DNA of 64,000 nt. Source: Bacteroidales bacterium UBA5515 (GTDB taxonomy: Bacteria > Bacteroidota > Bacteroidia > Bacteroidales > P3). Each line of letters begins with the position of its first letter. The stretch's first letter is position 1. A program made the position numbers and the translations under genes. Where the stretch lies: NCBI GenBank assembly GCA_002423895.1, contig DIOL01000035.1:2161-66160 (forward strand), written 5' to 3'. Under the pieces are notes generated by a model. It had not been told where the DNA came from and did not search any database. It was given only the letters and a program-made list of their open reading frames with translations. Below are positions 8,731 to 39,559 of this stretch, piece by piece.

Positions 8731-11649
8731 ATGGAAATTCCAAAATCACTTATTGAGAAAATGAATAAAAATCAACTTGTAATCTTTGCAGGTGCAGGAT
8801 TGTCAATGAATGCAGGTCTTCCAAGTTGGATTGATTTAATTAATGGCATACTCGATGATTTAGGAGATAAAGAACCTAAAAAAGATAAGTACAAGGACGC
8901 ATTAAAGGATGAAATAATGACTCCTTTAGAAGTACTCAATAAAATTGAAATTCACAAGGAATTTGTTATTGAAGCGATAGATAAAATAATTAGAGGCTTT
9001 GATGATGTTAAGCCAAGTCGATTATTTAATTATATAGGAGAAATTTCAACAAAGATAATCACTACAAATTATGATTATATTTTAGAGTCCATTTATAAAG
9101 ATTTTGAAAAAGTTGTATATAATAATTCATTTAAAGTTTCTAAACTATCAAACTATGAAAAATATATTTTTAAAATTCATGGAGATATTCAAGAACCAGA
9201 TAAATGTATATTATTCTCTTCTCAATATGAAGAATTATATATTAAAAATGAGCAATCATCAATTTTTGAATTAAAAAAAATAATATCAGATAAATCAATA
9301 CTTTTTCTTGGTTTTAGTCTAAATGACCCATACATCAATTTTGTTTTTGATTTTGTAACTAAAATTTATGGTGGTTTCACCCCTGAACATTTTATAATTA
9401 CTACTGAAAAAGAAAATAAATGGCCAAATAGAATTACTCCAATAAAAATCAATACTTACTCTGAAATAGAATCTTTTTTATCAGAATTATCTAAAGAGAA
9501 AAATAATCAAGAAAATAAAGAAGAAACATTAGTGGCAAAACTAAATGATAATCATCATCATAATAATATTATTGATTTGACTGAATCTCTTGAATATGAT
9601 TTGCCACCAAACAACAAGTTTTGGGTTGGAAGAAGAAAAGAAATAGAAAATATCTCTGTTGATATATTTAAAGTGATTTTTATTACAGGTATTGGAGGTC
9701 AAGGTAAATCAGCACTCGCAGCATATTATGTAAAGAATTGTTTTGATGCCAAACTGTTTGAATATGCTGATTGGAGGGATTTCAAAGAGGAAACAAATAG
9801 ATTTCAGACAAAACTAATTTCTATAATTAAAAGAATTTCTAATAATCAAGTTACAGCAAATCAATTAGAATGTGTAAGAAACAATGAATTAGTTGATTTG
9901 TTTTTTAAGTGTTTATCTGATAAAAAAATAATATTTGTTTTTGACAATATTGACAGTTATATAGATTTGGAAACTTTTACACCAAGTGGAGGAATGAAGT
10001 ATTTTTTTGAACAAGCATTAGAAATAAATCATAACTCTAAATTTATCTTTACATGTAGACCATTTATTCGAGAAGCTAGTTCAAACTTTTATCAACTTAC
10101 TCTTTCAGGTTTGTCAGAAAAAGAAACTGAAGAAATTTTTTCATTATACAATATAAATATCTGTAAAGAACAATTAAAAGAATTAAGCAAAAAAGCATAT
10201 ACACTCACAAAAGGACATCCTTTATGGTTAAATCTTATAGCAGCTCAAGCATTAAGAGGTTTTGAAACAGTGAACAAATTTATTCAAAGTATTGAAGATA
10301 AAACTGATTTCAATGAAGAAGGATTTTCTTCAATACTTTCGGAAAAAATTTTAAATGAAGTATGGTACTCTCTCAATAATAAGCAACAAACATTACTTAG
10401 GGGAATTGCAGAAACTGTAAAGCCAGAAACACTCTCTAATTTAAAGAAAATAATGGAATCTGAACTTAATGTTAATCAACTTGATAAAGCATTTAAAGTT
10501 TTGAAGAATTTGAACTTAATTGAACTAAAATCATCTGATATAAGTGAAGATCAAATTGAATTACATCCTCTAGTAAAAGAATTTATATCTTTGAAATTTC
10601 CAAAAACTGAAAGAGCAAAATTCATCACGTTACTAGTCCAATATTATGATAGGTTTATTTATATATTGAAACCGCAACTTAGTTCTAATATGAGTTTATC
10701 TGATTTTCAAAATTGGACATCCAAAATAGAATTACAGATAAACAAAGGGGATTTTAAATCTGCTTTAGTAGCTTTAGAAGAAGTATCAGCATCAATTATA
10801 TCAGCAGGATTTTCTGAAGAATATTTAAGGGTTTCAGAGAGATTATTTAATTCTGTTGATTGGAAATTAGCAATTGGTAATGAGTATCCATATTTTGAAA
10901 CTCAATTTGATACACTTACACAAGTTATGACACAATATGGTAATTTCAACGATTGTGAATTATTATTAGAAAAATATTCTAAATTAATTAATGGGAAAAG
11001 TTCAAAATACTTATCTTATTGCAGTGGAAAATGTTATTTATATTGGTATCAAGAAAAATTCAATGAGGCTATTGAAATTGGAGAGTATGGTCTTTTTTTG
11101 ATTAATAATTCAGGTATTTCTGATAATTATTCACTTAGACACAATTTAGCATTAGCAAGAAGGGACTCTAAAATAGATAAAAATATAAAAGAAGCATTAT
11201 TGTATTTTCTTAAAGGGGAAAATTTAGAAAATATAATTAATAATGTGAATGTAGATTTAGGAGGTCATTTCTATGGAAATATTGGTAAGTGTTTAGAACT
11301 TCTTAATGATAAAGTAAATGCATTGACTTGTTATTATATATCGTTTTCCATATTATGTAACGAAGATAATAATAATTCGAAGTTAAATTTAGGCTATGCT
11401 GCATCTTGGATTTATAGCATACTTAAGGATACGAAAAATAAATTAGATTCGCTATACTTTTTAAAACTGAGTATTAACATTTGGGAACATTCTTCACCTC
11501 CTAGAGCAGATAAAATGAAGAAAGAATGGAAAAATTTCATTATTGATAAACAGACAAAACAAGAAATTGAAAAGATTCCTGATTGGAAGATAGCTAATTA
11601 CTGTAAGGAAAAATCAAAAACTTATATTGGTAGTGGTTTTGTAAAATAA
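8731..11649 (+). CDS. SIR2-like effector fused to a STAND/NB-ARC NTPase and a helical-repeat (TPR-like) sensor; Avs-like antiphage candidate
   Basis: N-terminal SIR2_2-type motifs FAGAGLSMNAGLPSW, TTNYD, KIHGD and LGFSLND (aa 15-215). P-loop GIGGQGKS at aa 320-326 (nt 9688-9708) and Walker B IIFVFDNID around aa 400. The C-terminal 450 aa or so are helical-repeat-like. Confidence 0.85.
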   Translation: MEIPKSLIEKMNKNQLVIFAGAGLSMNAGLPSWIDLINGILDDLGDKEPKKDKYKDALKDEIMTPLEVLNKIEIHKEFVIEAIDKIIRGFDDVKPSRLFNYIGEISTKIITTNYDYILESIYKDFEKVVYNNSFKVSKLSNYEKYIFKIHGDIQEPDKCILFSSQYEELYIKNEQSSIFELKKIISDKSILFLGFSLNDPYINFVFDFVTKIYGGFTPEHFIITTEKENKWPNRITPIKINTYSEIESFLSELSKEKNNQENKEETLVAKLNDNHHHNNIIDLTESLEYDLPPNNKFWVGRRKEIENISVDIFKVIFITGIGGQGKSALAAYYVKNCFDAKLFEYADWRDFKEETNRFQTKLISIIKRISNNQVTANQLECVRNNELVDLFFKCLSDKKIIFVFDNIDSYIDLETFTPSGGMKYFFEQALEINHNSKFIFTCRPFIREASSNFYQLTLSGLSEKETEEIFSLYNINICKEQLKELSKKAYTLTKGHPLWLNLIAAQALRGFETVNKFIQSIEDKTDFNEEGFSSILSEKILNEVWYSLNNKQQTLLRGIAETVKPETLSNLKKIMESELNVNQLDKAFKVLKNLNLIELKSSDISEDQIELHPLVKEFISLKFPKTERAKFITLLVQYYDRFIYILKPQLSSNMSLSDFQNWTSKIELQINKGDFKSALVALEEVSASIISAGFSEEYLRVSERLFNSVDWKLAIGNEYPYFETQFDTLTQVMTQYGNFNDCELLLEKYSKLINGKSSKYLSYCSGKCYLYWYQEKFNEAIEIGEYGLFLINNSGISDNYSLRHNLALARRDSKIDKNIKEALLYFLKGENLENIINNVNVDLGGHFYGNIGKCLELLNDKVNALTCYYISFSILCNEDNNNSKLNLGYAASWIYSILKDTKNKLDSLYFLKLSINIWEHSSPPRADKMKKEWKNFIIDKQTKQEIEKIPDWKIANYCKEKSKTYIGSGFVK

Positions 11650-11713: not shown

Positions 11714-13825
11714 TTACGAAATCTGAGAGAAATCAATTTGGGGTTTGGTTCTTTGGAAGTATTCTTTTAGTTTTTGATTTTGTGGAGTAATAAGCATTGG
11801 GTCTTGTTGCGCTATTTCAATTGCTGTGTTTCTTGCAGCTTTTAAAATAGGCTCATCTTTAACAATATTAGCTATCTTTAAATCTAATAAACCACTTTGC
11901 TTTGTTCCAGCAATATCGCCTGGACCTCGAAGGCGAAGGTCAATTTCTGAAATTTCAAATCCATCATTTGTTTCAACCATTGCTCCAAGTCTTTCCTTTG
12001 CTTCGGAAGATAGTTTGTAGCTACTCATTAAAATGCAATAAGACTTTTCTGCTCCTCTACCAACTCTGCCACGCAATTGATGCAATTGAGAAAGTCCGAA
12101 GCGTTCTGCATTTTCAATTATCATTACAGAAGCATTGGGAACATCAACTCCAACTTCAATTACTGTTGTTGAAACCATAATATGAGTTATGCCTTTTTTA
12201 AATCTATCCATCTCATATTCCTTATCCTGAGCTTTCATTTTGCCATGAACAATGCTTATTTGAAATTCTGGTAATGGAAATTCTCTAACTATGCTTTCGT
12301 AGCCATCCATCAGATCTTTAAGATCTAATTTTTCGGACTCTTTGATTAATGGGTAAACAACATAAATTTGTCTTCCTGCTTCAATCTCTTTTCGCATAAA
12401 TGCAAAAATTCTAAGACGGTCTTTGTCGTAGAAATGAGCTGTTTGAACTGGCTTTCTTCCTGGAGGTAACTCATCAATCACTGAAACATCCAAGTCTCCA
12501 TACACTGTCATTGCAAGAGTTCGAGGAATAGGAGTAGCTGTCATTACCAAAATATGTGGAGCTGTATGATTTTTTGTCCACATCTTGGCTCTTTGTTCAA
12601 CTCCAAAACGATGTTGCTCATCAATAACACATAACCCTAAATTGGAAAACTTAACCTTGTCTTCAATTAAAGCATGTGTGCCAATAATTATATCAATTTT
12701 TCCTTCTTCCAATTCAGGGAGAATAACATTTCTTTCTTTTTGTGTTGTGCTTCCAGTTAAAAGAGCAACTTCAAGAGGCATATCTCCCAAAAATTTCTTT
12801 ATTGAAACATAATGCTGCTGAGCCAATATTTCGGTTGGTGCCATAATGGTTGCCTGAAAACCATTATCTATTGCAATTAGCATGCTTAAAAGAGCAACCA
12901 GTGTTTTTCCACTTCCTACATCTCCTTGCAAAAGGCGATTCATTTGATGTCCTGTTCTTAAATCATTGCGTATTTCCTTAATAACTCTTTTTTGAGCATT
13001 TGTTAATGGGAAAGGTAAATAGTTATTGAAGAAATCATTAAAAGCATTGCCAACCGTTGAAAAAACAAATCCTTGTGACTTTTCAACTCTATTGGTTTTG
13101 AGAAGTTGATGTTCAAGTTGCATAAAGAATAGCTCTTCAAATTTCAGTCTTGCTTTTGCTTTTGAAAGTAATTCAGTTGATGAAGGGAAGTGTATTTGAA
13201 TTAAAGCTTCTTCAAGTGAGATTAAATGATACTTATCAATAATATACTTTGGTAAACTTTCTGGGATATATCCTTTAACTTGTCCAATTAAAGTTCGCAT
13301 CAGGTTGGAAATAGCCTTAGAGTTTAAGAAGGCATTTTTCATTTTTTCGGAAGTATTGTAGAGAGGGGAGAACTTTTGAGTCAGGTTTTCTTGTGAGGCA
13401 AGGTATGTTTCCAACGGTTCAATGTCGGGGTGAGCAAAATTATAGTTTCCTTTAAAAAGTGAAGGCTTTCCGAAAATCACATATTCTTTTCCTTGCTTAA
13501 TGCTTTCTTTAATCCATTTTATTCCTTTAAAGAATACCAATTCAACCTTTCCAGTTTGGTCAGCAAAATTAATAGAAAGTCTTGCTTTTGCACCAATTCC
13601 AATAATTTCCATTCCAATGACTTTTCCTCTAATTTGAATGAAAACTTCTTCTGATTGAATATCCTTTATTTGAACAAAATTACTTTTATCAACATAGCGA
13701 TAAGGATAATAGGATATGAGGTCACGGTAAGTTGTTATGCCAAGTTCTTTGTTAAGAACTTTTGCTTTCTTCTCACCAACTCCTTTTAGAAATTCAATCT
13801 TAGTATCTAAGAGATTAACCTGCAT
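11714..13825 (-). CDS. recG: ATP-dependent DNA helicase RecG
   Basis: Wedge-domain N-terminus, GDVGSGKT, DEQHRFGV, QLRGRVGRG. Length 703 aa. Confidence 0.95.
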   Translation of the reverse strand: MQVNLLDTKIEFLKGVGEKKAKVLNKELGITTYRDLISYYPYRYVDKSNFVQIKDIQSEEVFIQIRGKVIGMEIIGIGAKARLSINFADQTGKVELVFFKGIKWIKESIKQGKEYVIFGKPSLFKGNYNFAHPDIEPLETYLASQENLTQKFSPLYNTSEKMKNAFLNSKAISNLMRTLIGQVKGYIPESLPKYIIDKYHLISLEEALIQIHFPSSTELLSKAKARLKFEELFFMQLEHQLLKTNRVEKSQGFVFSTVGNAFNDFFNNYLPFPLTNAQKRVIKEIRNDLRTGHQMNRLLQGDVGSGKTLVALLSMLIAIDNGFQATIMAPTEILAQQHYVSIKKFLGDMPLEVALLTGSTTQKERNVILPELEEGKIDIIIGTHALIEDKVKFSNLGLCVIDEQHRFGVEQRAKMWTKNHTAPHILVMTATPIPRTLAMTVYGDLDVSVIDELPPGRKPVQTAHFYDKDRLRIFAFMRKEIEAGRQIYVVYPLIKESEKLDLKDLMDGYESIVREFPLPEFQISIVHGKMKAQDKEYEMDRFKKGITHIMVSTTVIEVGVDVPNASVMIIENAERFGLSQLHQLRGRVGRGAEKSYCILMSSYKLSSEAKERLGAMVETNDGFEISEIDLRLRGPGDIAGTKQSGLLDLKIANIVKDEPILKAARNTAIEIAQQDPMLITPQNQKLKEYFQRTKPQIDFSQIS

Positions 13826-24926: not shown

Positions 24927-25034
24927 GAAAAGATAGAAAGTAAAAATATCAGCCATTCTTAACTTTCTCATTTGCTTTGCAAATTTGGGGAAATAATTAA
25001 TGGTAAATTCAACATTAAATTCAAAATAATTTTG

Positions 25035-25042
25035 TATATTTG
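25035..25042 (+). promoter_or_regulatory. Orphan Bacteroidota -7 box (TAtaTTTG) pointing into array C
   Basis: Matches TAnnTTTG. No ORF lies between it and the separate P1 promoter at 25413. Confidence 0.4.
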
Positions 25043-25137
25043 CAAATATAAACCATTCATTAGGTTTATTTAGGACTATTTATCCTAAAGTCAATTTCTG
25101 GAAAACAAACTCCAATCCCTAAAAATATATCAAAAAA

Positions 25138-25220
25138 AAGATGCACATCTTTTATAGTGAAAGATGTGCATCTTTTGGTATGAAAGATGTGCATCTTTGG
25201 GGTAAAAAGTCTTCGTTTAA
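25138..25220. repeat. Phased palindrome array C: 3 units of AAGATG(CA/TG)CATCTT, period 23 bp, plus a terminal AAGTCTTCGTTT unit
   Basis: Dyad centres lie at about 25144.5, 25167.5 and 25190.5. Unit 1 is inverted relative to units 2 and 3. Confidence 0.85.
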
Positions 25221-25387
25221 TAAGTTTTTTATAAGGAGTTTGTAGATTTATTCGCCGTTTACGCAGAATTATTCCCTATTTAATTTTAAATAATAAGGAT
25301 TATTTACCAAGAAAGTCTTTTTGATTCTCAAAAAAGACAACCATATTCCATTTAAGAAAAGAAATAAAAATAAATATAAGTTAAGAA

Positions 25388-25472
25388 TTAACACTATTTA
25401 AAAATATTTCCCTACCTTTGAACATTAATAATAAATATAAGTTATTAATGAATAAGTATAGAATTGAAAATC
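25388..25472 (+). repeat. Promoter/leader module P1 (direct repeat of P2)
   Basis: About 85 bp that aligns to 30060-30146. Shared sequence runs ACTATTT..AAAATATTT..CT..TTTGA...AATAATAAATATAAGTTATTAATGAATAAG..GATTG.AAATC. It includes a TAccTTTG -7 box at 25413-25420. Confidence 0.8.
25413..25420 (+). promoter_or_regulatory. -7 box TAccTTTG of the island cassette operon (inside P1)
   Basis: TAnnTTTG consensus, 138 nt upstream of the ATG at 25558. Confidence 0.5.
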
Positions 25473-25485
25473 TTAATAATAATAT

Positions 25486-25539
25486 AGTGCGTGATTACTT
25501 ATCGACTTTGTCGCTTTGCAAAGCAAAGAAATCCCAAAC
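25486..25539 (+). repeat. Inverted repeat R, left copy
   Basis: AGTGCGTGATTACTTATCGACTTTGTCGCTTTGCAAAGCAAAGAAATCCCAAAC matches the reverse complement of 29785-29840 at roughly 85 percent by eye. The core TTTGCAMAGCAAGAAATC also occurs at 26390-26407. Confidence 0.8.
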
Positions 25540-25557
25540 TAAGGAAAATTACCTATC

Positions 25558-26283
25558 ATGAGAAAATATTTAATTTTATTATTGTCATGCTTTTTAATTA
25601 CAGCATGCATTAAATCAAAAGTAGAATTAGAAGATTTAAATACTATTTGTTTTAAAATATCTGAAAGAGCATGTGATAATGCATATAGATATAAAAAATA
25701 TCAAGACAAAGAAGCTCTTGCATTATCTTTTAAACAATGTGATTCTATCATTTATGGCGGATGTGATGTTAATGCAATAGGATCAGCAATACATATAAAG
25801 TTTAATCTATATTTTTGGACTAAACAATACAAACAAGCATTAGATGAAATAGAAAAATTAAGGACCAGAGATGATATTTTTTGGGATGCTAATTTCCCCA
25901 GCTCAACTTATTATAAATTATTAATACAAACATTCTGGGCTAATGATAGAGGAGAAATAGAAGAACGCAACCATTATATAAAACAAAATATTGCTTTTAT
26001 GGATGCTTGCTTTAATGCTTATAATGAGGTTAAATACGCAGATATAAAAAAAAATCTAAAAGAAGTAGATTTAGCAGACGCAGAAATTCATCATGTTAAA
26101 AAAGACTATATGAGTTTAGTTACATATTATTCAATAAAATCATTGCTATATAAAAAAGAAGATCTTTTGGAAGAAATAAAAAATATAAAAGTAGAAAAAC
26201 CTTTAGAGGAATTTTATTCTCTTGAAGATTATATAAAGAAACTAGACACAAATTTGTATTGGAAAGAGGAAAATTTATTTTAA
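25558..26283 (+). CDS. Helical lipoprotein, unknown function (island cassette 1)
   Basis: Lipobox LITAC. The ORF is followed by the conserved inter-cassette repeat X. Confidence 0.6.
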   Translation: MRKYLILLLSCFLITACIKSKVELEDLNTICFKISERACDNAYRYKKYQDKEALALSFKQCDSIIYGGCDVNAIGSAIHIKFNLYFWTKQYKQALDEIEKLRTRDDIFWDANFPSSTYYKLLIQTFWANDRGEIEERNHYIKQNIAFMDACFNAYNEVKYADIKKNLKEVDLADAEIHHVKKDYMSLVTYYSIKSLLYKKEDLLEEIKNIKVEKPLEEFYSLEDYIKKLDTNLYWKEENLF

Positions 26284-26296
26284 GTAGGGTAGTTGG

Positions 26297-26380
26297 TAAT
26301 GTATCAGATTGGGAGCCTTATTTAGTGAAGAGTTAAAAACTAAAAGTTAAAAGTGATAGGAAAACAATGGATTACTAATC
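26297..26380 (+). repeat. Inter-cassette repeat X, copy 1
   Basis: TAATGTATCAGATTGGGAGCCTTATTTAGTGAAGAGTTAAAAACTAAAAGT...GGATTACTAATC, starting 14 nt after the stop of cassette 1. Confidence 0.8.
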
Positions 26381-26488
26381 GGTTTACCGTTTGCACAGCA
26401 AGAAATCATAATAATAAAGAAGTACTGGATTATAAATCGCGCACGACAAAAGTATCAACGTTTTTGCAACTGTCTTGAATAACAGCCT

Positions 26489-27016
26489 ATGAGAACAATA
26501 TTTTTTACATTATTAGTTTTAAGCTTAAATGTTTTCGGTCAATCTGATAAAAAAGATACATTAATAAATTATTGGTTACCTGATTTTGATACATATTCAT
26601 TTGATACCATTATAAATCAGACAAATTATCGAATGAAAACGTATTGTTTAAATGATAGTGCAGTTTATAATGAAACCTTTACTGTAGAGGGAAGTAAATA
26701 TAATAACCTAATTGAATATAGTGTAGCACATAATTTTGCGACTGATTTTACGATTAAAACAGCTAATAATGAGATTAAGTTACATTTAATAAAGGAAAAT
26801 TTTAAGGATAGCTTATCATCTGATTTCTTTAAGATTTGTCACATGTGGAAAAATGAGTTTTCACATGTAGAGAATGGACAGTTAATTTTTCGTGCAACAT
26901 TTGCGAAACCAGATACTGATTATCAATTTGCAATTTTATATTTAATAACAGACAAAGGTGATATTAGAATATTAAAAGTAGAAGATGAATCATTCTATGG
27001 ATTGGGAAATGAATAA
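26489..27016 (+). CDS. Secreted small protein, unknown function (island cassette 2)
   Basis: Signal peptide MRTIFFTLLVLSLNVFGQ. Flanked by Y-type repeats. Confidence 0.55.
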   Translation: MRTIFFTLLVLSLNVFGQSDKKDTLINYWLPDFDTYSFDTIINQTNYRMKTYCLNDSAVYNETFTVEGSKYNNLIEYSVAHNFATDFTIKTANNEIKLHLIKENFKDSLSSDFFKICHMWKNEFSHVENGQLIFRATFAKPDTDYQFAILYLITDKGDIRILKVEDESFYGLGNE

Positions 27017-27081
27017 ATTTCCCGCACTACAGAAGTACTGGATTCTAAATCCAGCACTACGGAACAATAAAATATAAGATT

Positions 27082-27627
27082 ATGAAAAAAATAGCAATAA
27101 TAATATTTTCAATCATTGGTATTTCAGGTTGTTATATGATTTACCCACTTGAGAACGAATCTCGAAATGTTTTTGATTTAGATGATTATACTGAGACAAA
27201 ATACGAAGTATCGTTGCAATTTGGTATAAATAGTTGGATGACTCCTGACGAGAATTATGGTAAATACTCTGATACACTAGATAGATTAAAATATATATTT
27301 AGTATACCTTGTCCAGAACTTCCTTTAGTAAAGCTAAATTCATTTACTTTTACAAGGCAAAAAGACAAGGATACAATCCCAACCATATTTTATGTATGGG
27401 GAGGAAAGGGGGAGACATTATTGATTGATAGCTTGCCTGTTAGTTTTGATAATAAAATAAAAGAAAAGATTCAATCTTTTTCAATTATTGCTGAGAGTAA
27501 TGCTCCATTTCGTGATATAGATAGTGTTTATATAAATTACAATATACAAGTAGGGAAGGATACAATTATAAAAAGTATTTTTTATAAACGAACTCTACGA
27601 AATGGATCAAAGTGGTTAATGTGGTAA
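27082..27627 (+). CDS. Lipoprotein, unknown function (island cassette 3)
   Basis: Lipobox GISGC. Followed by the second copy of repeat X. Confidence 0.55.
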   Translation: MKKIAIIIFSIIGISGCYMIYPLENESRNVFDLDDYTETKYEVSLQFGINSWMTPDENYGKYSDTLDRLKYIFSIPCPELPLVKLNSFTFTRQKDKDTIPTIFYVWGGKGETLLIDSLPVSFDNKIKEKIQSFSIIAESNAPFRDIDSVYINYNIQVGKDTIIKSIFYKRTLRNGSKWLMW

Positions 27628-27632
27628 TTGAT

Positions 27633-27717
27633 TAATGCATCAGAAAAGGAGCCTTATTTAGTGAAGAGTTAAAAACTAAAAGTGAAAAGTGATGGAAAAA
27701 CAACGGATTACAAATCC
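27633..27717 (+). repeat. Inter-cassette repeat X, copy 2
   Basis: TAATGCATCAGAAAAGGAGCCTTATTTAGTGAAGAGTTAAAAACTAAAAGT...GGATTACAAATCC, starting 6 nt after the stop of cassette 3. Confidence 0.8.
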
Positions 27718-27737
27718 TGCAGATGAAAATAGTACTG

Positions 27738-29225
27738 CTATAATAGTTTTTTAATCGCATTTATTGTTTCTATTGTTTTTAGTTTAAGTTCTGGATCTAC
27801 ATTAGCTTGTTCAATCATCATTAGACAACTATCAATCTTCTCTATTGTATCAGCATTTGATAATTTAATCTTCTCGAGTTCAGTACTATTAACAACACTA
27901 ATAGAATTAGTATTCAAATTAATCAACTCTGGAAGTATTTTTAACAATTTCATAGCTTTATTCATTTCAATCAAGGGATTAGTCTTAACTAAAGCATTGA
28001 ATAATGTGAGAGTATTATCTCTATCTTTAAACCTATAATGAACAGAACACTCTCTTAACTGCATATTGTTAATATCATCACTTACTGCTAATTCTTTTAA
28101 CTCTCTTTCAATTTTAACTAATAAATCTGTCAAGTTTTTATCAGTTGAAGATATTAAAATTGAATATATATTTTGTTTCCAGAATGATTTAGATTGTTCA
28201 ATATCTGTATATCCATAAATGTGTTTAAATCCCTCATACACTATGATATTAATACGCCTTAGATTTAATTGTTTTTCAAAGTAATACTCAGAACTTAAAT
28301 ATGCTCTTATTGCACTTGCTAAATCCAAATATATGAAATGGATATGAACACCTAAATAAATTGATTTAACAATAGTTTGAAGTCTTCCCTCAAAAGTTTC
28401 TCCTAACTTAAATTTATCTTGCACAATTTTAGTCTTTTTACAATTTGAGACAATGCTGTCTAAATTATTACTATATAAAGTTATTTGCGCACCAAGTTCA
28501 TTGAATAATTTATTGTTTCCATCAGGGAAATAATTAATCTTTTCCCTTACATCAATATTATAATTATCAGTTGAGTAAATAAGAGGTATTTGAAACTTTA
28601 AGATATACTTATGCAAGAAAGGCAATATGTCTTTTATTATCTTTAAAAAGGCATTTATTCTATTAGTTTCAGTATCTTCTCCTATTTGTATTAAAAAATC
28701 GTAAACTTTTTGAGGATATAAATCATAGTGAATGGAAAGATTTCGAGTATCTTTATCTGTTGATAGTGCATAACTATTCTCAAATTCTTTTGCTTGTTGT
28801 TCTATTTTATTAATATCCGTTAATAATTCTGAATCGTTTATTTCTTTAGCTAATATTTTAAATTTAGCCCATATTGCATTATCCTTATCTTTACCAAAAC
28901 CAAATAAATATTTATAGCCTTCTAACGTTATTACATTTATATATTTTAGATTAAAACGTTTTTCAGGAACTAACATTGTTCTAAAATTTGCCCTTAAAAA
29001 TGTACTTAAATCAAGATCCATAAGCAAAGAAAATACATAAAGTCTTATAAATATTTTCCACAATTTAAATTCTTTTATACATTTATACTCTTTTTCATCT
29101 ATATCTTCTAAGCTTTCTAATGAACTAACACAACTACACAATATAGGTACATATAATGAGAAGTTATTCCCCATATTTTCATATAATCTATGAATTGTTT
29201 CTTCGGATGCTGGTTTCTGTGTCAT
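27738..29225 (-). CDS. Internally duplicated protein with two Rx4H motifs (candidate double-HEPN RNase)
   Basis: Two homologous halves, aa 68-180 and aa 298-410. Each has NL+xINxIxxEGxK...W and ends in an Rx4H-Y motif: TRNLSIHY (R161-H166, nt 28728-28745) and LRECSVHY (R391-H396, nt 28038-28055). Confidence 0.55.
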   Translation of the reverse strand: MTQKPASEETIHRLYENMGNNFSLYVPILCSCVSSLESLEDIDEKEYKCIKEFKLWKIFIRLYVFSLLMDLDLSTFLRANFRTMLVPEKRFNLKYINVITLEGYKYLFGFGKDKDNAIWAKFKILAKEINDSELLTDINKIEQQAKEFENSYALSTDKDTRNLSIHYDLYPQKVYDFLIQIGEDTETNRINAFLKIIKDILPFLHKYILKFQIPLIYSTDNYNIDVREKINYFPDGNNKLFNELGAQITLYSNNLDSIVSNCKKTKIVQDKFKLGETFEGRLQTIVKSIYLGVHIHFIYLDLASAIRAYLSSEYYFEKQLNLRRINIIVYEGFKHIYGYTDIEQSKSFWKQNIYSILISSTDKNLTDLLVKIERELKELAVSDDINNMQLRECSVHYRFKDRDNTLTLFNALVKTNPLIEMNKAMKLLKILPELINLNTNSISVVNSTELEKIKLSNADTIEKIDSCLMMIEQANVDPELKLKTIETINAIKKLL

Positions 29226-29413
29226 TGTAATTATATTGCTTTAATAATTAATTCTATTGAGATAATATTCTATCCTATTTATTGTTTAACCTATTTTCTA
29301 TTCGGTTTTTTATAAGACTTTATAAGGGAGAAAATTGATATGCTTTTTCAATTTTATAGTAAGTGTGGTTTATAAAAGATAATATTAAATGAGAAAAATT
29401 AATTATCTTTTTG

Positions 29414-29421
29414 CAAAGATA
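29414..29421 (-). promoter_or_regulatory. -7 box (TATCTTTG on the minus strand) upstream of the double-Rx4H gene
   Basis: CAAAGATA on the plus strand. It implies a leader of about 180 nt. Confidence 0.4.
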
Positions 29422-29529
29422 AAAATAATAATGATATAATGATCACAAATCTAACATCGTATTCTGCCTCTTTCTATTTTTAACCATCTAAAACAAGCTT
29501 AAAATATGATACCTTATGATATTAAATTT

Positions 29530-29760
29530 AGACTTCTTGTTTTTGAAACGAGACTTCTTCTTTTTACTTTTAGACTTCTTGTTTGTAGTCAATAAGTCTG
29601 ACTTTTGTTATCAAAAAGTCTGACTTATTGGGTTGAAAAGTCTGACTTTTTATATTGAAAAGACTGACTTTTTAGGTAAGAAAGACTGACTTTTTGGGTA
29701 TAATAACTTCTTCTAAAAGTATAATAACTTCTTCTAAATGTAAAATTAGGAAGTTATTGT
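29530..29760. repeat. Phased array D: about 10 units in four sub-families, period 21-22 bp
   Basis: AGACTTCTTGTTT at 29530, 29551 and 29572. AAGTCTGACTT at 29594, 29616 and 29638. AAGACTGACTT at 29660 and 29682. ATAATAACTTCTTCTAAA at 29700 and 29721, with an inverted partner GGAAGTTATT at 29749. Confidence 0.85.
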
Positions 29761-29784
29761 TTGAAATAAACTAATCGTTTTTTT

Positions 29785-29840
29785 GTCGTGTGAGATTTCT
29801 TGCTGTGCAAAGCAATAAAGTCGATAATTAATCATGCACT
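29785..29840 (-). repeat. Inverted repeat R, right copy
   Basis: The reverse complement reads AGTGCATGATTAATTATCGACTTTATTGCTTTGCACAGCAAGAAATCTCACACGAC. Confidence 0.8.
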
Positions 29841-29858
29841 TCTTAATAAAAGCAATAA

Positions 29859-29952
29859 AAAGTTAACCAAGTTAATCAAGTTAATCAAAAATGAAAAGTA
29901 TTTCAGAATAGAAAATACAATACTTTTTAAAACAAGTTAACTTGGTTAACTT
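29859..29952. repeat. Nested palindrome between R(right) and P2
   Basis: Perfect 16-bp arms: AAGTTAACCAAGTTAA at 29860-29875 and TTAACTTGGTTAACTT at 29937-29952. They enclose a 9-bp inner inverted repeat, AAAAGTATT at 29894 and AATACTTTT at 29919. AAGTTAA is also repeated three times with a 9-bp period. Confidence 0.8.
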
Positions 29953-30059
29953 CATTAACTATTTTAAACAAGATTTAAAATGCAGTAATGTTTCAATCTA
30001 ATTTTCCCCCTGCAATTATCTTTTCTTCAATACCTATATAGCTAATATTTTATTGATTA

Positions 30060-30146
30060 ATTAATACTATTTTGAAAATATTTACTTATCTTTGACGAGC
30101 AATAATAAATATAAAGTTATTAATGAATAAGCATTGGATTGCAAAT
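30060..30146 (+). repeat. Promoter/leader module P2 (direct repeat of P1), upstream of the MFS-M20 operon
   Basis: See P1. The -7 box TAtcTTTG lies at 30086-30093. Confidence 0.8.
30086..30093 (+). promoter_or_regulatory. -7 box TAtcTTTG of the MFS-M20 operon (inside P2)
   Basis: TAnnTTTG consensus. Confidence 0.5.
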
Positions 30147-30251
30147 CACGTACAACGTAAAAGCAATGAAATTATTCACGACGTAAATCTAAATTTATTA
30201 AAATAACGATATAGAAAGATACAATAAATAAACAATTAAAAACTAATAATT

Positions 30252-38689: not shown

Positions 38690-39559
38690 TTAGTTTTTAA
38701 TTATTTTCTTTGTGGTTACATGCATATCATTATTGTAAAAACTAAAGAAATATATTCCCGATTTATCTGTAGACATATCAATTGTGTTATAGCCCTTTTT
38801 GATTAATTCCAAACGTAGTTCTTGCCCTAAATTATTATATATTTTAACGAAATAATCATCATTAGACTCAATTATTAGCTTGTCTTTAACAGGATTTGGA
38901 GATATTTTTATATTATTGTCTTGACTAATATTATCTAAGCCTATCTTTACGTTTGAGACATTAATATGATAATTTATCTCAACACCATCTTGTTGAATTT
39001 TAAATCCAATATTTTGAATATTTGGACAATAACTTTCTCCAAATATTGTGTCAATAAGAAATGCATCATGTACAGAGGTGTCAATTGTATCAGTTTCAAA
39101 TAGTATTTTTGTTTCAATATCAGATATTCGCAGTAAAGAAAGTTTATTATTATCATATGAACCTCTTAACAATGCATATCCAGTATTTTGATTAATCATA
39201 TTTATTTCTTCAATTTCATAATAGCCCAAATGACAAAAAGGAGCCCAAGAATTTCCAGCATCTAAAGTTATATTAGAAAATAAAAACCCAGCCCCATTTA
39301 CAACTATAAGAACAATGGAGTCAGTAAAAACTTCCATTTTATCTATATTACAACAGCCCATCATCCCAGATTCTGATCTAATGAGTGTGCTATTGCGAAA
39401 TACATCATACCTATTTCCATGTGCTTCAATTTGAGTATTTGTATATGTATAAGTAAATGTAACAGGAGGGTCACAAATATCATTTATCTTGCCTACATAA
39501 CTCCATTGAGCAAAAATTTGCAAAGGCATCAAAGCCAAAAGAAATAATAATTTTTTCAT
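38690..39559 (-). CDS. Secreted protein with a T9SS C-terminal sorting domain
   Basis: Signal peptide, and a C-terminal ISPNPVKDKLIIES...GIYFFSF Por_Secre_tail-like domain. Confidence 0.7.
   Translation of the reverse strand: MKKLLFLLALMPLQIFAQWSYVGKINDICDPPVTFTYTYTNTQIEAHGNRYDVFRNSTLIRSESGMMGCCNIDKMEVFTDSIVLIVVNGAGFLFSNITLDAGNSWAPFCHLGYYEIEEINMINQNTGYALLRGSYDNNKLSLLRISDIETKILFETDTIDTSVHDAFLIDTIFGESYCPNIQNIGFKIQQDGVEINYHINVSNVKIGLDNISQDNNIKISPNPVKDKLIIESNDDYFVKIYNNLGQELRLELIKKGYNTIDMSTDKSGIYFFSFYNNDMHVTTKKIIKN

Follow-up and report, generated by a model that had tools for sequence, protein, structure and literature searches.

The DNA analyzed here is a 64-kb window (the whole stretch of contig DIOL01000035.1 under study) from an uncultured member of the Bacteroidota, and our subject is an island of ~4.8 kb within it (roughly 25290-30070). 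Three small co-oriented genes, c1, c2 and c3, are separated there by repeated non-coding elements and followed by a convergent gene for a 495-aa protein and 1 kb of non-coding DNA. A Na+/H+ exchanger gene borders the island on one side and a major facilitator superfamily (MFS) transporter gene on the other. G+C content is 23-30% in the island (24-30% across 25000-27999) versus 26-43%, mostly 28-36%, in the flanks; the remainder of the window is ordinary chromosome encoding RecG, Lon, DnaX, RpoD and type IX secretion cargo, and a scan of the window found no tRNA genes. An initial annotation of this DNA had proposed that the small genes are cassettes divided by a repeat X and by stem-loop motifs. 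We report that the hairpins in question belong by sequence to a family of tagged repetitive extragenic palindromic (REP) elements, and on balance we favor the interpretation that the island is a strain-variable array of acquired exported-protein genes with portable REP-type flanks and at least one orphan immunity gene.

Related contigs and loci from metagenome-assembled genomes (MAGs) were compared with the window and are denoted L006, L086, L101 and so on. A soil MAG of the same species (L006), encoding a 98%-identical exchanger protein, is co-linear with the window up to ~25290 and then carries other genes at the island position: a DUF4352 gene, two small reverse-strand open reading frames (ORFs), an IS1595 transposase and an interrupted c3 homologue. 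A more distant MAG (exchanger 81% identical) has a 2854-aa gene there. The island position is thus a hotspot that varies between strains. In L086, the closest contig (95% nucleotide identity over c2), the sequence begins within the leader hairpin and the c2 homologue stands directly behind this leader, without c1; after c2 come a 252-aa gene, an X copy 98.5% identical to the second copy in the window (X2), decayed hairpins, a gene of 246 aa and finally a perfect hairpin doublet. The cassette idea is borne out by these comparisons, with c1 absent and X following another gene in L086, and with different genes at the position in the same-species MAG.

Homologues of c1 fall into two clusters only (89% and 82% identity), and both are encoded directly downstream of Rhs C-terminal toxin genes, 11 nt after the toxin gene or overlapping it. 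The products of these toxin genes end in the Rhs core (...NNPVMLIDPDGKDW...) followed by a ~210-aa C-terminal domain, and the Rhs_assc_core model scores 67 bits on the toxin product (cutoff 32.5). An immunity gene directly after an Rhs toxin C-terminus is the standard toxin-immunity arrangement. Because its homologues occupy exactly this place, we identify c1 as an orphan homologue of an Rhs-toxin immunity protein, an ancestry read from sequence. The 13 nt before the c1 start codon (AAAATTACCTATC) equal the toxin-immunity junction of L101 and are the sole part of that junction surviving in the window. Both ends of the 3.6-kb contig L101 (1-205 and 3149-3586) encode the same Rhs repeat sequence, which would come either from rhs genes in tandem or from an assembly wrapped around a repeat.

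The structure model of c2 (predicted local distance difference test, pLDDT, 85) matches 4id2, a DUF4738 protein (E = 1.7e-6), with a weak second match to the PliI lysozyme inhibitor that is a lead only. For c3, no homologue was found, and it is the sole member of its cluster among 5.8 billion proteins; the interrupted copy in L006, 77% identical, adjoins the IS1595 transposase. Pfam, NCBIfam and PADLOC yielded no match for c1, c3 or the 495-aa protein. The likeness to immunity-gene arrays noted in the initial annotation thus stands for c1, with its homologues abutting Rhs-core toxin genes, whereas c2 offers a DUF4738 fold with a weak PliI likeness and c3 is an ORFan; we would infer that c2 and c3 are immunity proteins as well.

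X occupies 26297-26380 and 27633-27716 (84 nt, 89% identity) and, as described initially, closely follows c1 and c3, beginning 13 nt past the c1 stop codon and 5 nt past that of c3. A 36-nt exact core of X is confined to these two places in the window, and 0/100 shuffles gave any match. The end of the first copy (X1) is not truly at 26380: the dyad that closes it is a hairpin with an expanded loop (26369-26407) and continues into the next motif, Y1, so X1 and Y1 form one continuous intergenic unit. Similarity among the X copies ends exactly after GGATTACnAATC, and short Logan contigs with c2 and c3 start and stop inside X copies, as expected for an assembler at a repeat. The beginning of X corresponds to a post-gene box with the consensus GTAGTGTATCAGATTTGGAG. 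In related contigs this box comes after at least eight small genes that are not related to one another, 0-29 nt past the stop codon; among them are the c1 family and genes of 143, 144, 164, 203, 224 and 252 aa. Contigs with this box also carry hairpin doublets, having been retrieved for the hairpin pattern alone. When X1 was aligned with the post-gene flanks of L156, L222 and L101, only 0-1 of 500 shuffles scored as high. In the related contigs the post-gene element has an AT-rich tail ending in a stem and T-run terminator; in the window, a doublet replaces the terminator.

Several identities for X were considered and set aside. A structured RNA is ruled out by fold z-scores of +0.5 and +0.9 for X as a whole, which is not significantly structured, and by a consensus energy of -0.08 kcal/mol for the post-gene element, which has no conserved RNA structure. 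Alignment to the 3' end of REP-associated tyrosine transposase (RAYT) genes scored no better than shuffles; reading frames, by inspection, are not kept between copies; and the pairings of start with end that an attC site would call for differ between copies and are not significant. The initial annotation had named two refuting outcomes, one being X and Y copies confined to this locus with a fixed gene content in all relatives, the other X and Y as fragments of a decayed coding sequence; instead gene content varies, no frame is kept, and the genes that X follows (c1, c3 and, in L086, the 252-aa gene) are three unrelated ones. A broader version of the second outcome, in which a local duplication or decayed coding sequence left X and Y behind with no role of their own, could draw on there being just two X copies in the window and on the decay of some hairpins, but the same three unrelated genes, the missing frame, the dissimilarity to RAYT 3' fragments and the presence of the hairpin family in more than 100 metagenome contigs have already largely refuted it, and we give it almost no credence.

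The second motif, the Y 21-mer AGAAGTACTGGATTNTAAATC, occurs in the window only at 26418 and 27031 (0.02 expected), ahead of c2 and c3 as originally noted. The GGATT-N3-AATC pattern GGATTNNNAATC has 8 matches in the window versus 1.09 expected, and 6/8 lie in the island (26369, 26427, 27040/27041, 27705/27706 and 30136); the dyads earlier seen at the X ends and in the P leaders, ahead of c1 (P1) and of the MFS gene (P2), are thus real, the P1 copy GAATTGAAAATC being degenerate. P1 and P2 align with a score of 83 versus 32.6 +/- 5.2 for shuffles, and a near-identical leader stands ahead of a REP doublet in L123. The second Y copy folds as GTACTGGATT-CTA-AATCCAGCAC, with a 3-nt loop on a 10-bp stem that contains one A.C mismatch (-10.1 kcal/mol, z = -2.4). 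The stem-loop of the initial annotation therefore exists, as do both of its GCACTAC heptamers (27024-27030 and 27053-27059, the second being the right arm of the hairpin plus its tag), but not with the 8-bp stem and 7-nt loop assigned to it.

The hairpins of the window, L086 and L105 suggested a family pattern, GTGCnnGATT-NNN-AATCnnGCAC (GTGCNNGATTNNNAATCNNGCAC), and a metagenome scan with it returned at least 120 loci, although many matches in high-G+C contigs may belong to other hairpin families. Both NN positions are complementary in 72/133 deduplicated sites among the matches listed versus 8.3 expected (p = 2e-50), and those matches include at least 12 stem variants. Because the free stem positions covary, the hairpin is under selection to fold. 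Members of the family combine into a two-hairpin unit: GGATTnnnAATCC, an AT-rich spacer, GTGCnnGATTnnnAATCnnGCAC and then a GACG tag, and ~30 composite doublets have the spacer and tag in common. In full, the composite unit reads ...ATGAATAAGTATC, hairpin 1 GGATTACAAATCC, spacer TAATAATAATATA, hairpin 2 GTGCGGGATTGCAAATCCCGCAC, then GACGG, the canonical hairpin 2 being 23 nt long with a GACG(G) tag.

A covariance model (R1) was built from 21 composite units taken from foreign metagenome contigs only, with no window sequence; stem column 39/53 of the doublets holds four Watson-Crick types and one G-U (GC 10, AU 3, CG 2, UA 2, UG 1). Run on the whole window with filters off, and with E-values that are rough, R1 placed its six best matches in the island (25455-30159), at five distinct places since Y2 scores on both strands. 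The c2-c3 junction containing Y2 ranked first (26999-27063, 36.8 bits, E = 6.4e-7), followed by Y1 (26395-26450, E = 6.4e-4), P1 (25455-25527, E = 1.7e-3), Y2 on the other strand (E = 0.013), the X2 end (27699-27741, E = 0.019) and P2 (30108-30159, E = 0.053). The model also found the doublets of L086 (75 bits), and gave no match in the alternative islands L006 and L007 or in integron-like contigs.

Individual window copies resemble foreign ones in their details. The spacer of the doublet at Y1 is identical in L146 and L157, and the expanded loop of P1 matches L156 and L222. In these last two contigs we see an expanded-loop variant, GGATT[~30 nt]AATCC, which explains the 33-nt "leader loop" of P1, the hairpin at 26369-26407 and an inverted copy at 29785-29839 (inverted repeat of 41 nt at 88%, with an 18-nt exact match to 26390-26407). 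The fused single hairpin of P2 is what would remain if a doublet lost the DNA between its two GGATTnnnAATC cores. Window hairpins end in the tags GACAA, TACGG, TAAGG or AACG, and all window copies are intergenic. The elements of the initial annotation can accordingly be renamed from their sequence: P is a pre-REP leader plus doublet, Y is spacer plus hairpin 2, and the X ends are hairpin 1 (Table 1).

Table 1. Features of the island, with window coordinates
Feature	Coordinates	Strand	Description
P1 pre-REP leader	25397..25459	+	paralogue of 30071-30134; contains TACCTTTG (25413-25420) and ATGAATAAGTAT (25448-25459)
REP doublet 1, hairpin 1 and spacer	25460..25486	+	degenerate hairpin 1 AGAATTGAAAATCT (25460-25473); spacer TAATAATAATATA (25474-25486)
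REP doublet 1, hairpin 2	25487..25539	+	left arm GTGCGTGATT (25487-25496); 33-nt expanded loop (25497-25529); decayed right arm AATCCCAAAC (25530-25539)
REP doublet 1, end	whole doublet 25460..25557	+	TAAGG and AAAATTACCTATC up to the c1 start codon
c1	25558..26283	+	241 aa, lipoprotein-like; orphan homologue of Rhs-toxin immunity protein
X1 body	26296..26368	+	post-gene box GTAATGTATCAGATTGGGAG (26296-26315), then AT-rich conserved stretch
REP doublet 2 (X1 end and Y1), first part	26369..26421	+	expanded hairpin 1 GGATT[...]AATC (26369-26407); spacer ATAATAATAAAGAA (26408-26421)
REP doublet 2, second part	whole doublet 26369..26452	+	hairpin 2 GTACTGGATTATAAATCGCGCAC (26422-26444); tag GACAAAAG
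c2	26489..27016	+	175 aa, exported DUF4738-family protein; 51 homologues
c2-c3 junction, first part	27004..27034	+	hairpin GGGAAAT-GAATAA-ATTTCCC (27004-27023), overlapping the c2 stop; GCACTACAGAA (27024-27034)
c2-c3 junction, second part	whole junction 27004..27065	+	hairpin 2 (Y2) GTACTGGATTCTAAATCCAGCAC (27035-27057); tag TACGG
c3	27082..27627	+	181 aa, lipoprotein-like ORFan
X2 body and start of doublet	27632..27735	+	X2 body (27632-27704); hairpin 1 GGATTACAAATCC (27705-27717); decayed spacer and start of hairpin 2 (27718-27735)
495-aa gene	27738..29225	-	convergent; inside the island, not one of the cassettes
Tandem-repeat region	29490..29740	+	AAAACAAGCTTAAAAT, then repeats ~22 nt apart (AAGTCTGACTTTT x5, GACTTCTT x3, others)
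Inverted REP hairpin 2	29785..29839	-	minus strand GTGCATGATT[33 nt]AATCTCACAC-GAC; expanded loop, pointing to the 495-aa gene
P2	30071..30157	+	upstream of the MFS transporter gene; leader paralogue with fused single hairpin TGGATTGCAAATC-ACGTAC-AACG

These properties place the window hairpins in a widespread CGTC/GACG-tagged family of REP type. A CGTC-tagged REP super-family has been reported in Bacteroidetes, and no dedicated transposase was found for it (Di Nocera et al. 2013, PMC3733652). Like REPs and REPtrons, the elements described here are short extragenic palindromes with an unpaired end tag (CGTC is GACG on the other strand), occur in doublets and clusters and have stems that covary between lineages; a RAYT gene flanked by the repeats is likewise present, in L180 and thus in related loci only. 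They differ in their 10-bp stem and 3-nt loop, in having a second short dyad as partner of this hairpin, beyond a conserved AT-rich spacer, and in bracketing variable small genes together with a separate 3' box.

The link to RAYT genes is seen outside the window. In L180 a full-length RAYT gene (NCBIfam REP_Tyr_transpos, NF047646, 97 bits against a cutoff of 80, and Pfam Y1_Tnp) is flanked by seven hairpins, and at eight loci a doublet directly follows a ~40-codon RAYT 3' fragment, NYI(N/H)NNPVKEEFVYLPEEYKYSS...GGKGILEVEVIK*. RAYT remnants thus abut GACG-tagged units, in contrast to the 2013 survey, in which no dedicated transposase was found (PMC3733652). Examples of the fragment beside doublets are L156 8467-8589, L222 8-127 and 231-347, L192, L151, L137, L112 and L201; it looks like a deleted REPtron that has turned into a small repeat of its own. 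Within its codons GTA TAT TTG CCA lies TATATTTG. This stretch fits the -7 box of Bacteroidota, and it can be aligned, if weakly, to the TAnnTTTG boxes in P1 and P2 (a score reached by 11-27 of 1000 shuffles).

One could imagine that a RAYT (HUH/Y1) transposase encoded elsewhere moves or captures the cassettes as single-stranded DNA, with the tagged hairpins and the post-gene box as the element ends of a REP-based counterpart of the integron. Small genes of immunity type would then be taken up, cut out and put back in at REP hairpins. The hairpin family is tied to RAYT genes and remnants, its stem covariation implies a folded hairpin, unrelated genes lie between the same two kinds of flank that tightly abut start and stop codons, and both ends of the c1-X1 segment fall at the same position of a hairpin 2 copy. 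Single-stranded REP DNA is cut and rejoined in vitro by the E. coli RAYT (PMC3733652). That enzyme, however, is reported to cut at the tag (PMC3733652), whereas the breakpoints inferred here lie at the boundary of loop and arm; the window has no RAYT, and next to cassettes there are only truncated RAYT fragments. No circular or empty-site junction was seen. Carriage of genes is not known for REPs, which also counts against such a system, and we consider it quite improbable.

Unrelated small genes stand between the same two kinds of flank, and these flanks mark where related sequences cease to be alike. Downstream of c2, similarity between L086 and the window ends at ~27034, where the Y2 hairpin begins, and the insertion or deletion of c1-X1 that sets the window apart from L086 has its ends at the AATC of two copies of hairpin 2. 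The flanks of L103 and L105 diverge into a REP. Together, the breakpoints mapped to GGATT-N3-AATC cores comprise the X ends, the c1-X1 indel, the P2 fusion, the L103/L105 flank switch and an Rhs truncation in L199. Short-homology or slipped-strand recombination fits these breakpoints at least as well as an enzyme would; the E. coli RAYT is reported to cut at the tag and not at the loop (PMC3733652). In L199 (2992-3230), an Rhs-type frame (...FYYHSDHLGS...) stops abruptly at three tandem partial hairpin 2 left arms (TTGTCGTGCGGGATT), after which comes a complete doublet, as if a toxin gene had been truncated in association with a REP.

A different possibility is that the repeats are mainly expression signals that travel with each gene, a 5' hairpin leader and a 3' untranslated tail, and have no role in mobility, in which case ordinary recombination, illegitimate or homologous, would have given rise to the array. 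In Bacteroidota the -7 promoter consensus is TAnnTTTG, and TACCTTTG of P1 (25413-25420) fits it, which we take to make it a candidate promoter box; boxes of this kind are present in both the P1 and P2 leaders. Doublets have a co-oriented small ORF within 200 nt in 12/29 cases overall and in 9/13 of the AT-rich subfamily, lying 8-180 nt upstream of it. The canonical post-gene element ends in a stem and T-run terminator, and the folds of Y2 (z = -2.4) and of the hairpin 3' in L086 (z = -3.25) are stable. A sigma-70 promoter and terminator scan of the window was uninformative, these models not being suited to Bacteroidota. Since the doublets are mostly co-oriented with a small ORF and the P1 and P2 leaders contain TAnnTTTG-like boxes, a role of doublets and leaders in expression, read from their arrangement, is likely alongside any other. 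As a complete account it is nevertheless unlikely: the post-gene element shows no conserved RNA structure and X is unstructured, no Rfam family matches (nothing relevant at gathering scores in the window, or at E <= 1 in eight related loci), a RAYT gene is flanked, and an Rhs gene cut short, by hairpins of this same kind, both DNA-level events, and expression signals alone leave the exact similarity breaks at dyads unexplained.

By layout rather than by motif letters, the island also recalls the recombinase-associated acquired interbacterial defense clusters of Bacteroidales (rAID-1; Ross et al. 2019, bioRxiv 10.1101/471110; PMC12247911), which have co-oriented genes of 100-300 codons (241, 175 and 181 codons in the window), low G+C content, orphan immunity content (here c1), conserved intergenic motifs and strain variability. 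The resemblance claimed by the initial annotation holds for gene size, orientation, G+C content and motifs but stops at the recombinase: no XerD-like enzyme is encoded at the 5' end or anywhere in the 64 kb. There are also three genes only, and the immunity link of c1 is to an Rhs toxin and not to a characterized type VI secretion effector.

Integron cassettes recombine at attC sites of 57-141 nt with R'' (RYYYAAC) and R' (GTTRRRY) boxes, the start of a cassette being complementary to its own R''. The island shares with integrons and clusters of attC sites lacking integrases (CALINs) promoterless, co-oriented, unrelated ORFs separated by structured repeats, but by inspection the three window intergenic regions have no RYYYAAC/GTTRRRY boxes, no attC architecture and no complementarity of a cassette start to its own 3' site, their hairpins span 13-23 nt, and no IntI is encoded. 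The proposed likeness to attC arrays is therefore not upheld, while the accompanying remark that the repeats do not match the R-box consensus proved right. Elsewhere, c2 homologues do occur in co-oriented small-gene arrays with integron-rule junctions (L088, L094 and L095). There the cassette of the c2 homologue starts with G followed, across the junction, by TTGTGTGGC, and its own 3' site starts GCCACACAAC; neighboring cassettes have the start/site pairs GTTAGCCACC/GGTGGCTAAC and TTAGCACTT/AAGTGCTAAC. Start complementarity is present in 4/6 cassettes of L095 (1-4204) and in the c2 homologues of L088, L094 and L095, which are probably integron or rAID-type arrays in other Bacteroidota-like organisms.

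These arrays lend some appeal to an integron- or rAID-like origin in which a tyrosine recombinase encoded elsewhere acts on the GGATT-N3-AATCC dyad with its GTGC/GCAC arms as a double-stranded core site, specifically 8-bp arms around a 7-bp TTnnnAA overlap. Co-oriented genes of 175-241 codons, low G+C content and conserved intergenic motifs are as in rAID-1, c2 homologues lie between true integron-style sites elsewhere, and hybrid sites such as Y1 resemble recombination products. We strongly doubt this origin, given that the 64-kb window has no recombinase, R''/R' core or start-to-own-site complementarity, that covarying arms favor a folded hairpin over a conserved protein-binding half-site, and that the same hairpins flank a RAYT gene and not an integrase.

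Orphan toxin-immunity modules of rhs and cdi loci (Poole et al. 2011, PMC3150448; Koskiniemi et al. 2014, PMC3967940) provide a third comparison. As in those modules, an immunity gene lies in an array without its toxin, and c1 homologues are found in true Rhs C-terminal toxin/immunity pairs, with a common downstream flank, the post-gene box. Here, however, no Rhs core or C-terminal fragment lies upstream, 13 nt of the junction being all that is left, and the genes are separated by REP doublets instead of rhs core repeats. The locus works in the manner of AID/rAID-type orphan-immunity arrays and of orphan rhs modules, yet lacks what defines a rAID cluster, an integron or an Rhs module, because it has no recombinase, no attC architecture and no toxin fragments.

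We return to the interpretation favored at the outset, that the island is an array of independently acquired exported-protein genes collected in a low-G+C hotspot between the Na+/H+ exchanger and MFS genes. Each cassette would carry portable non-coding flanks: on its 5' side a leader and REP-type hairpin doublet (P, Y), and on its 3' side the post-gene box and tail (X body), running into the next doublet. The family membership of the repeats, their RAYT linkage elsewhere, the variability of the cassettes and the Rhs-immunity ancestry of c1 are documented above; that the repeats drive exchange we infer. The repeated flanks would then be the sites of cassette gain, loss and reshuffling, by recombination or slipped-strand events between repeat copies. 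The array would probably be read from the P1 leader as its promoter, in which case the hairpins would lie in the transcript between the genes.

A number of observations weigh against this interpretation. Family searches with all ORFs of at least 100 aa found no recombinase or transposase in the 64-kb window (no Phage_integrase match), extending the earlier remark that none is adjacent; nor does the window contain a RAYT gene or, by tblastn of the L101 Rhs protein (best E = 0.58), an Rhs remnant. Neither c2 nor c3 has a direct tie to any toxin. Classical REPs are dispersed through the genome in high copy number, whereas the window copies are confined to one island: R1 gave no convincing copy in the other ~59 kb of the window (best 38948-39013, E = 0.08) and none in the same-species locus L006. 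Among the window hairpins, several are hybrids or have decayed, and the array could be a relic. The hairpin pattern itself was picked after examples had been seen. The likeness of X1 to the post-gene family lies mainly in the first 20 nt and is marginal beyond ~20 nt, and a profile of the whole post-gene length finds X1 only marginally (E = 0.038) and misses X2. Further copies of X and Y, which the initial annotation had suggested seeking, proved scarce: a near-identical X follows a different gene in L086, the one related contig with the X variant of the window, but an exact X 21-mer had no match in GTDB representative genomes, JGI metagenomes or IMG/VR, and Y had none in IMG/VR. Finally, the AATC breakpoints come from few pairwise comparisons and lie in invariant bases, and hence are not exactly placeable.

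The 495-aa protein of the island has 211 representative relatives of ~500 aa. Two R-x4-H motifs, RNLSIH (161-166) and RECSVH (391-396), are invariant or nearly so among them, with R161, H166 and H396 invariant. Its AlphaFold model is all-alpha (pLDDT 93), and a structure search with the model found no match in PDB or BFVD. Because of the two conserved R-x4-H motifs, the sequence suggests a double HEPN-like RNase, possibly a defense protein or toxin. Beyond its gene, the layout of the tandem-repeat region recurs downstream of cassettes in L101 (2800-3100), L222 (1100-1400) and L094 (2300-2379). The AAAACAAGCTTAAAAT lead-in is present in the window and L101, the other loci having a similar A-rich lead-in, and the repeat unit differs from locus to locus; these repeats look iteron- or operator-like.

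Other features lie outside the array. Just downstream of the Na+/H+ exchanger gene (25137-25198), the palindrome AAAGATGYRCATCTTT occurs three times at ~22-nt spacing; it is kept in the same-species L006 and so lies outside the variable island. In L006, ~250 nt of non-coding DNA with long complementary segments (12790-13040) separate a TAnnTTTG-like box from the DUF4352 gene and could be a structured RNA. Elsewhere in the window, a gene at 8731-11649 (+) encodes a 972-aa protein with SIR2_2 at its N terminus and an NB-ARC/STAND NTPase, an architecture typical of anti-phage (Avs-like) proteins.

In literature searches on REP/RAYT and toxin-immunity systems, we found no account of immunity-type cassettes enclosed by REP doublets and a shared 3' box, nor did the two 13-mer dyads turn up in any paper when searched in full text. 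Orphan immunity arrays shape survival in contact-dependent warfare between bacteria, and how rAID biogenesis works is an area of active research (PMC12247911). RAYT remnants next to GACG/CGTC-tagged palindromes are an association not found in the 2013 survey of tagged REPs (PMC3733652). Even conservatively, the R1 doublet model and the 20-nt post-gene box are handles with which to locate such arrays in low-G+C Bacteroidota metagenomes. If the flanks drive exchange, REP/RAYT elements, so far viewed as selfish or structural repeats, would have an undescribed cargo-handling role. If a RAYT-run cassette system were true, Bacteroidota would possess an integron-like collector of anti-toxin genes without a tyrosine-recombinase integrase, and CGTC-tagged REPs would gain the dedicated enzyme they were thought to lack.

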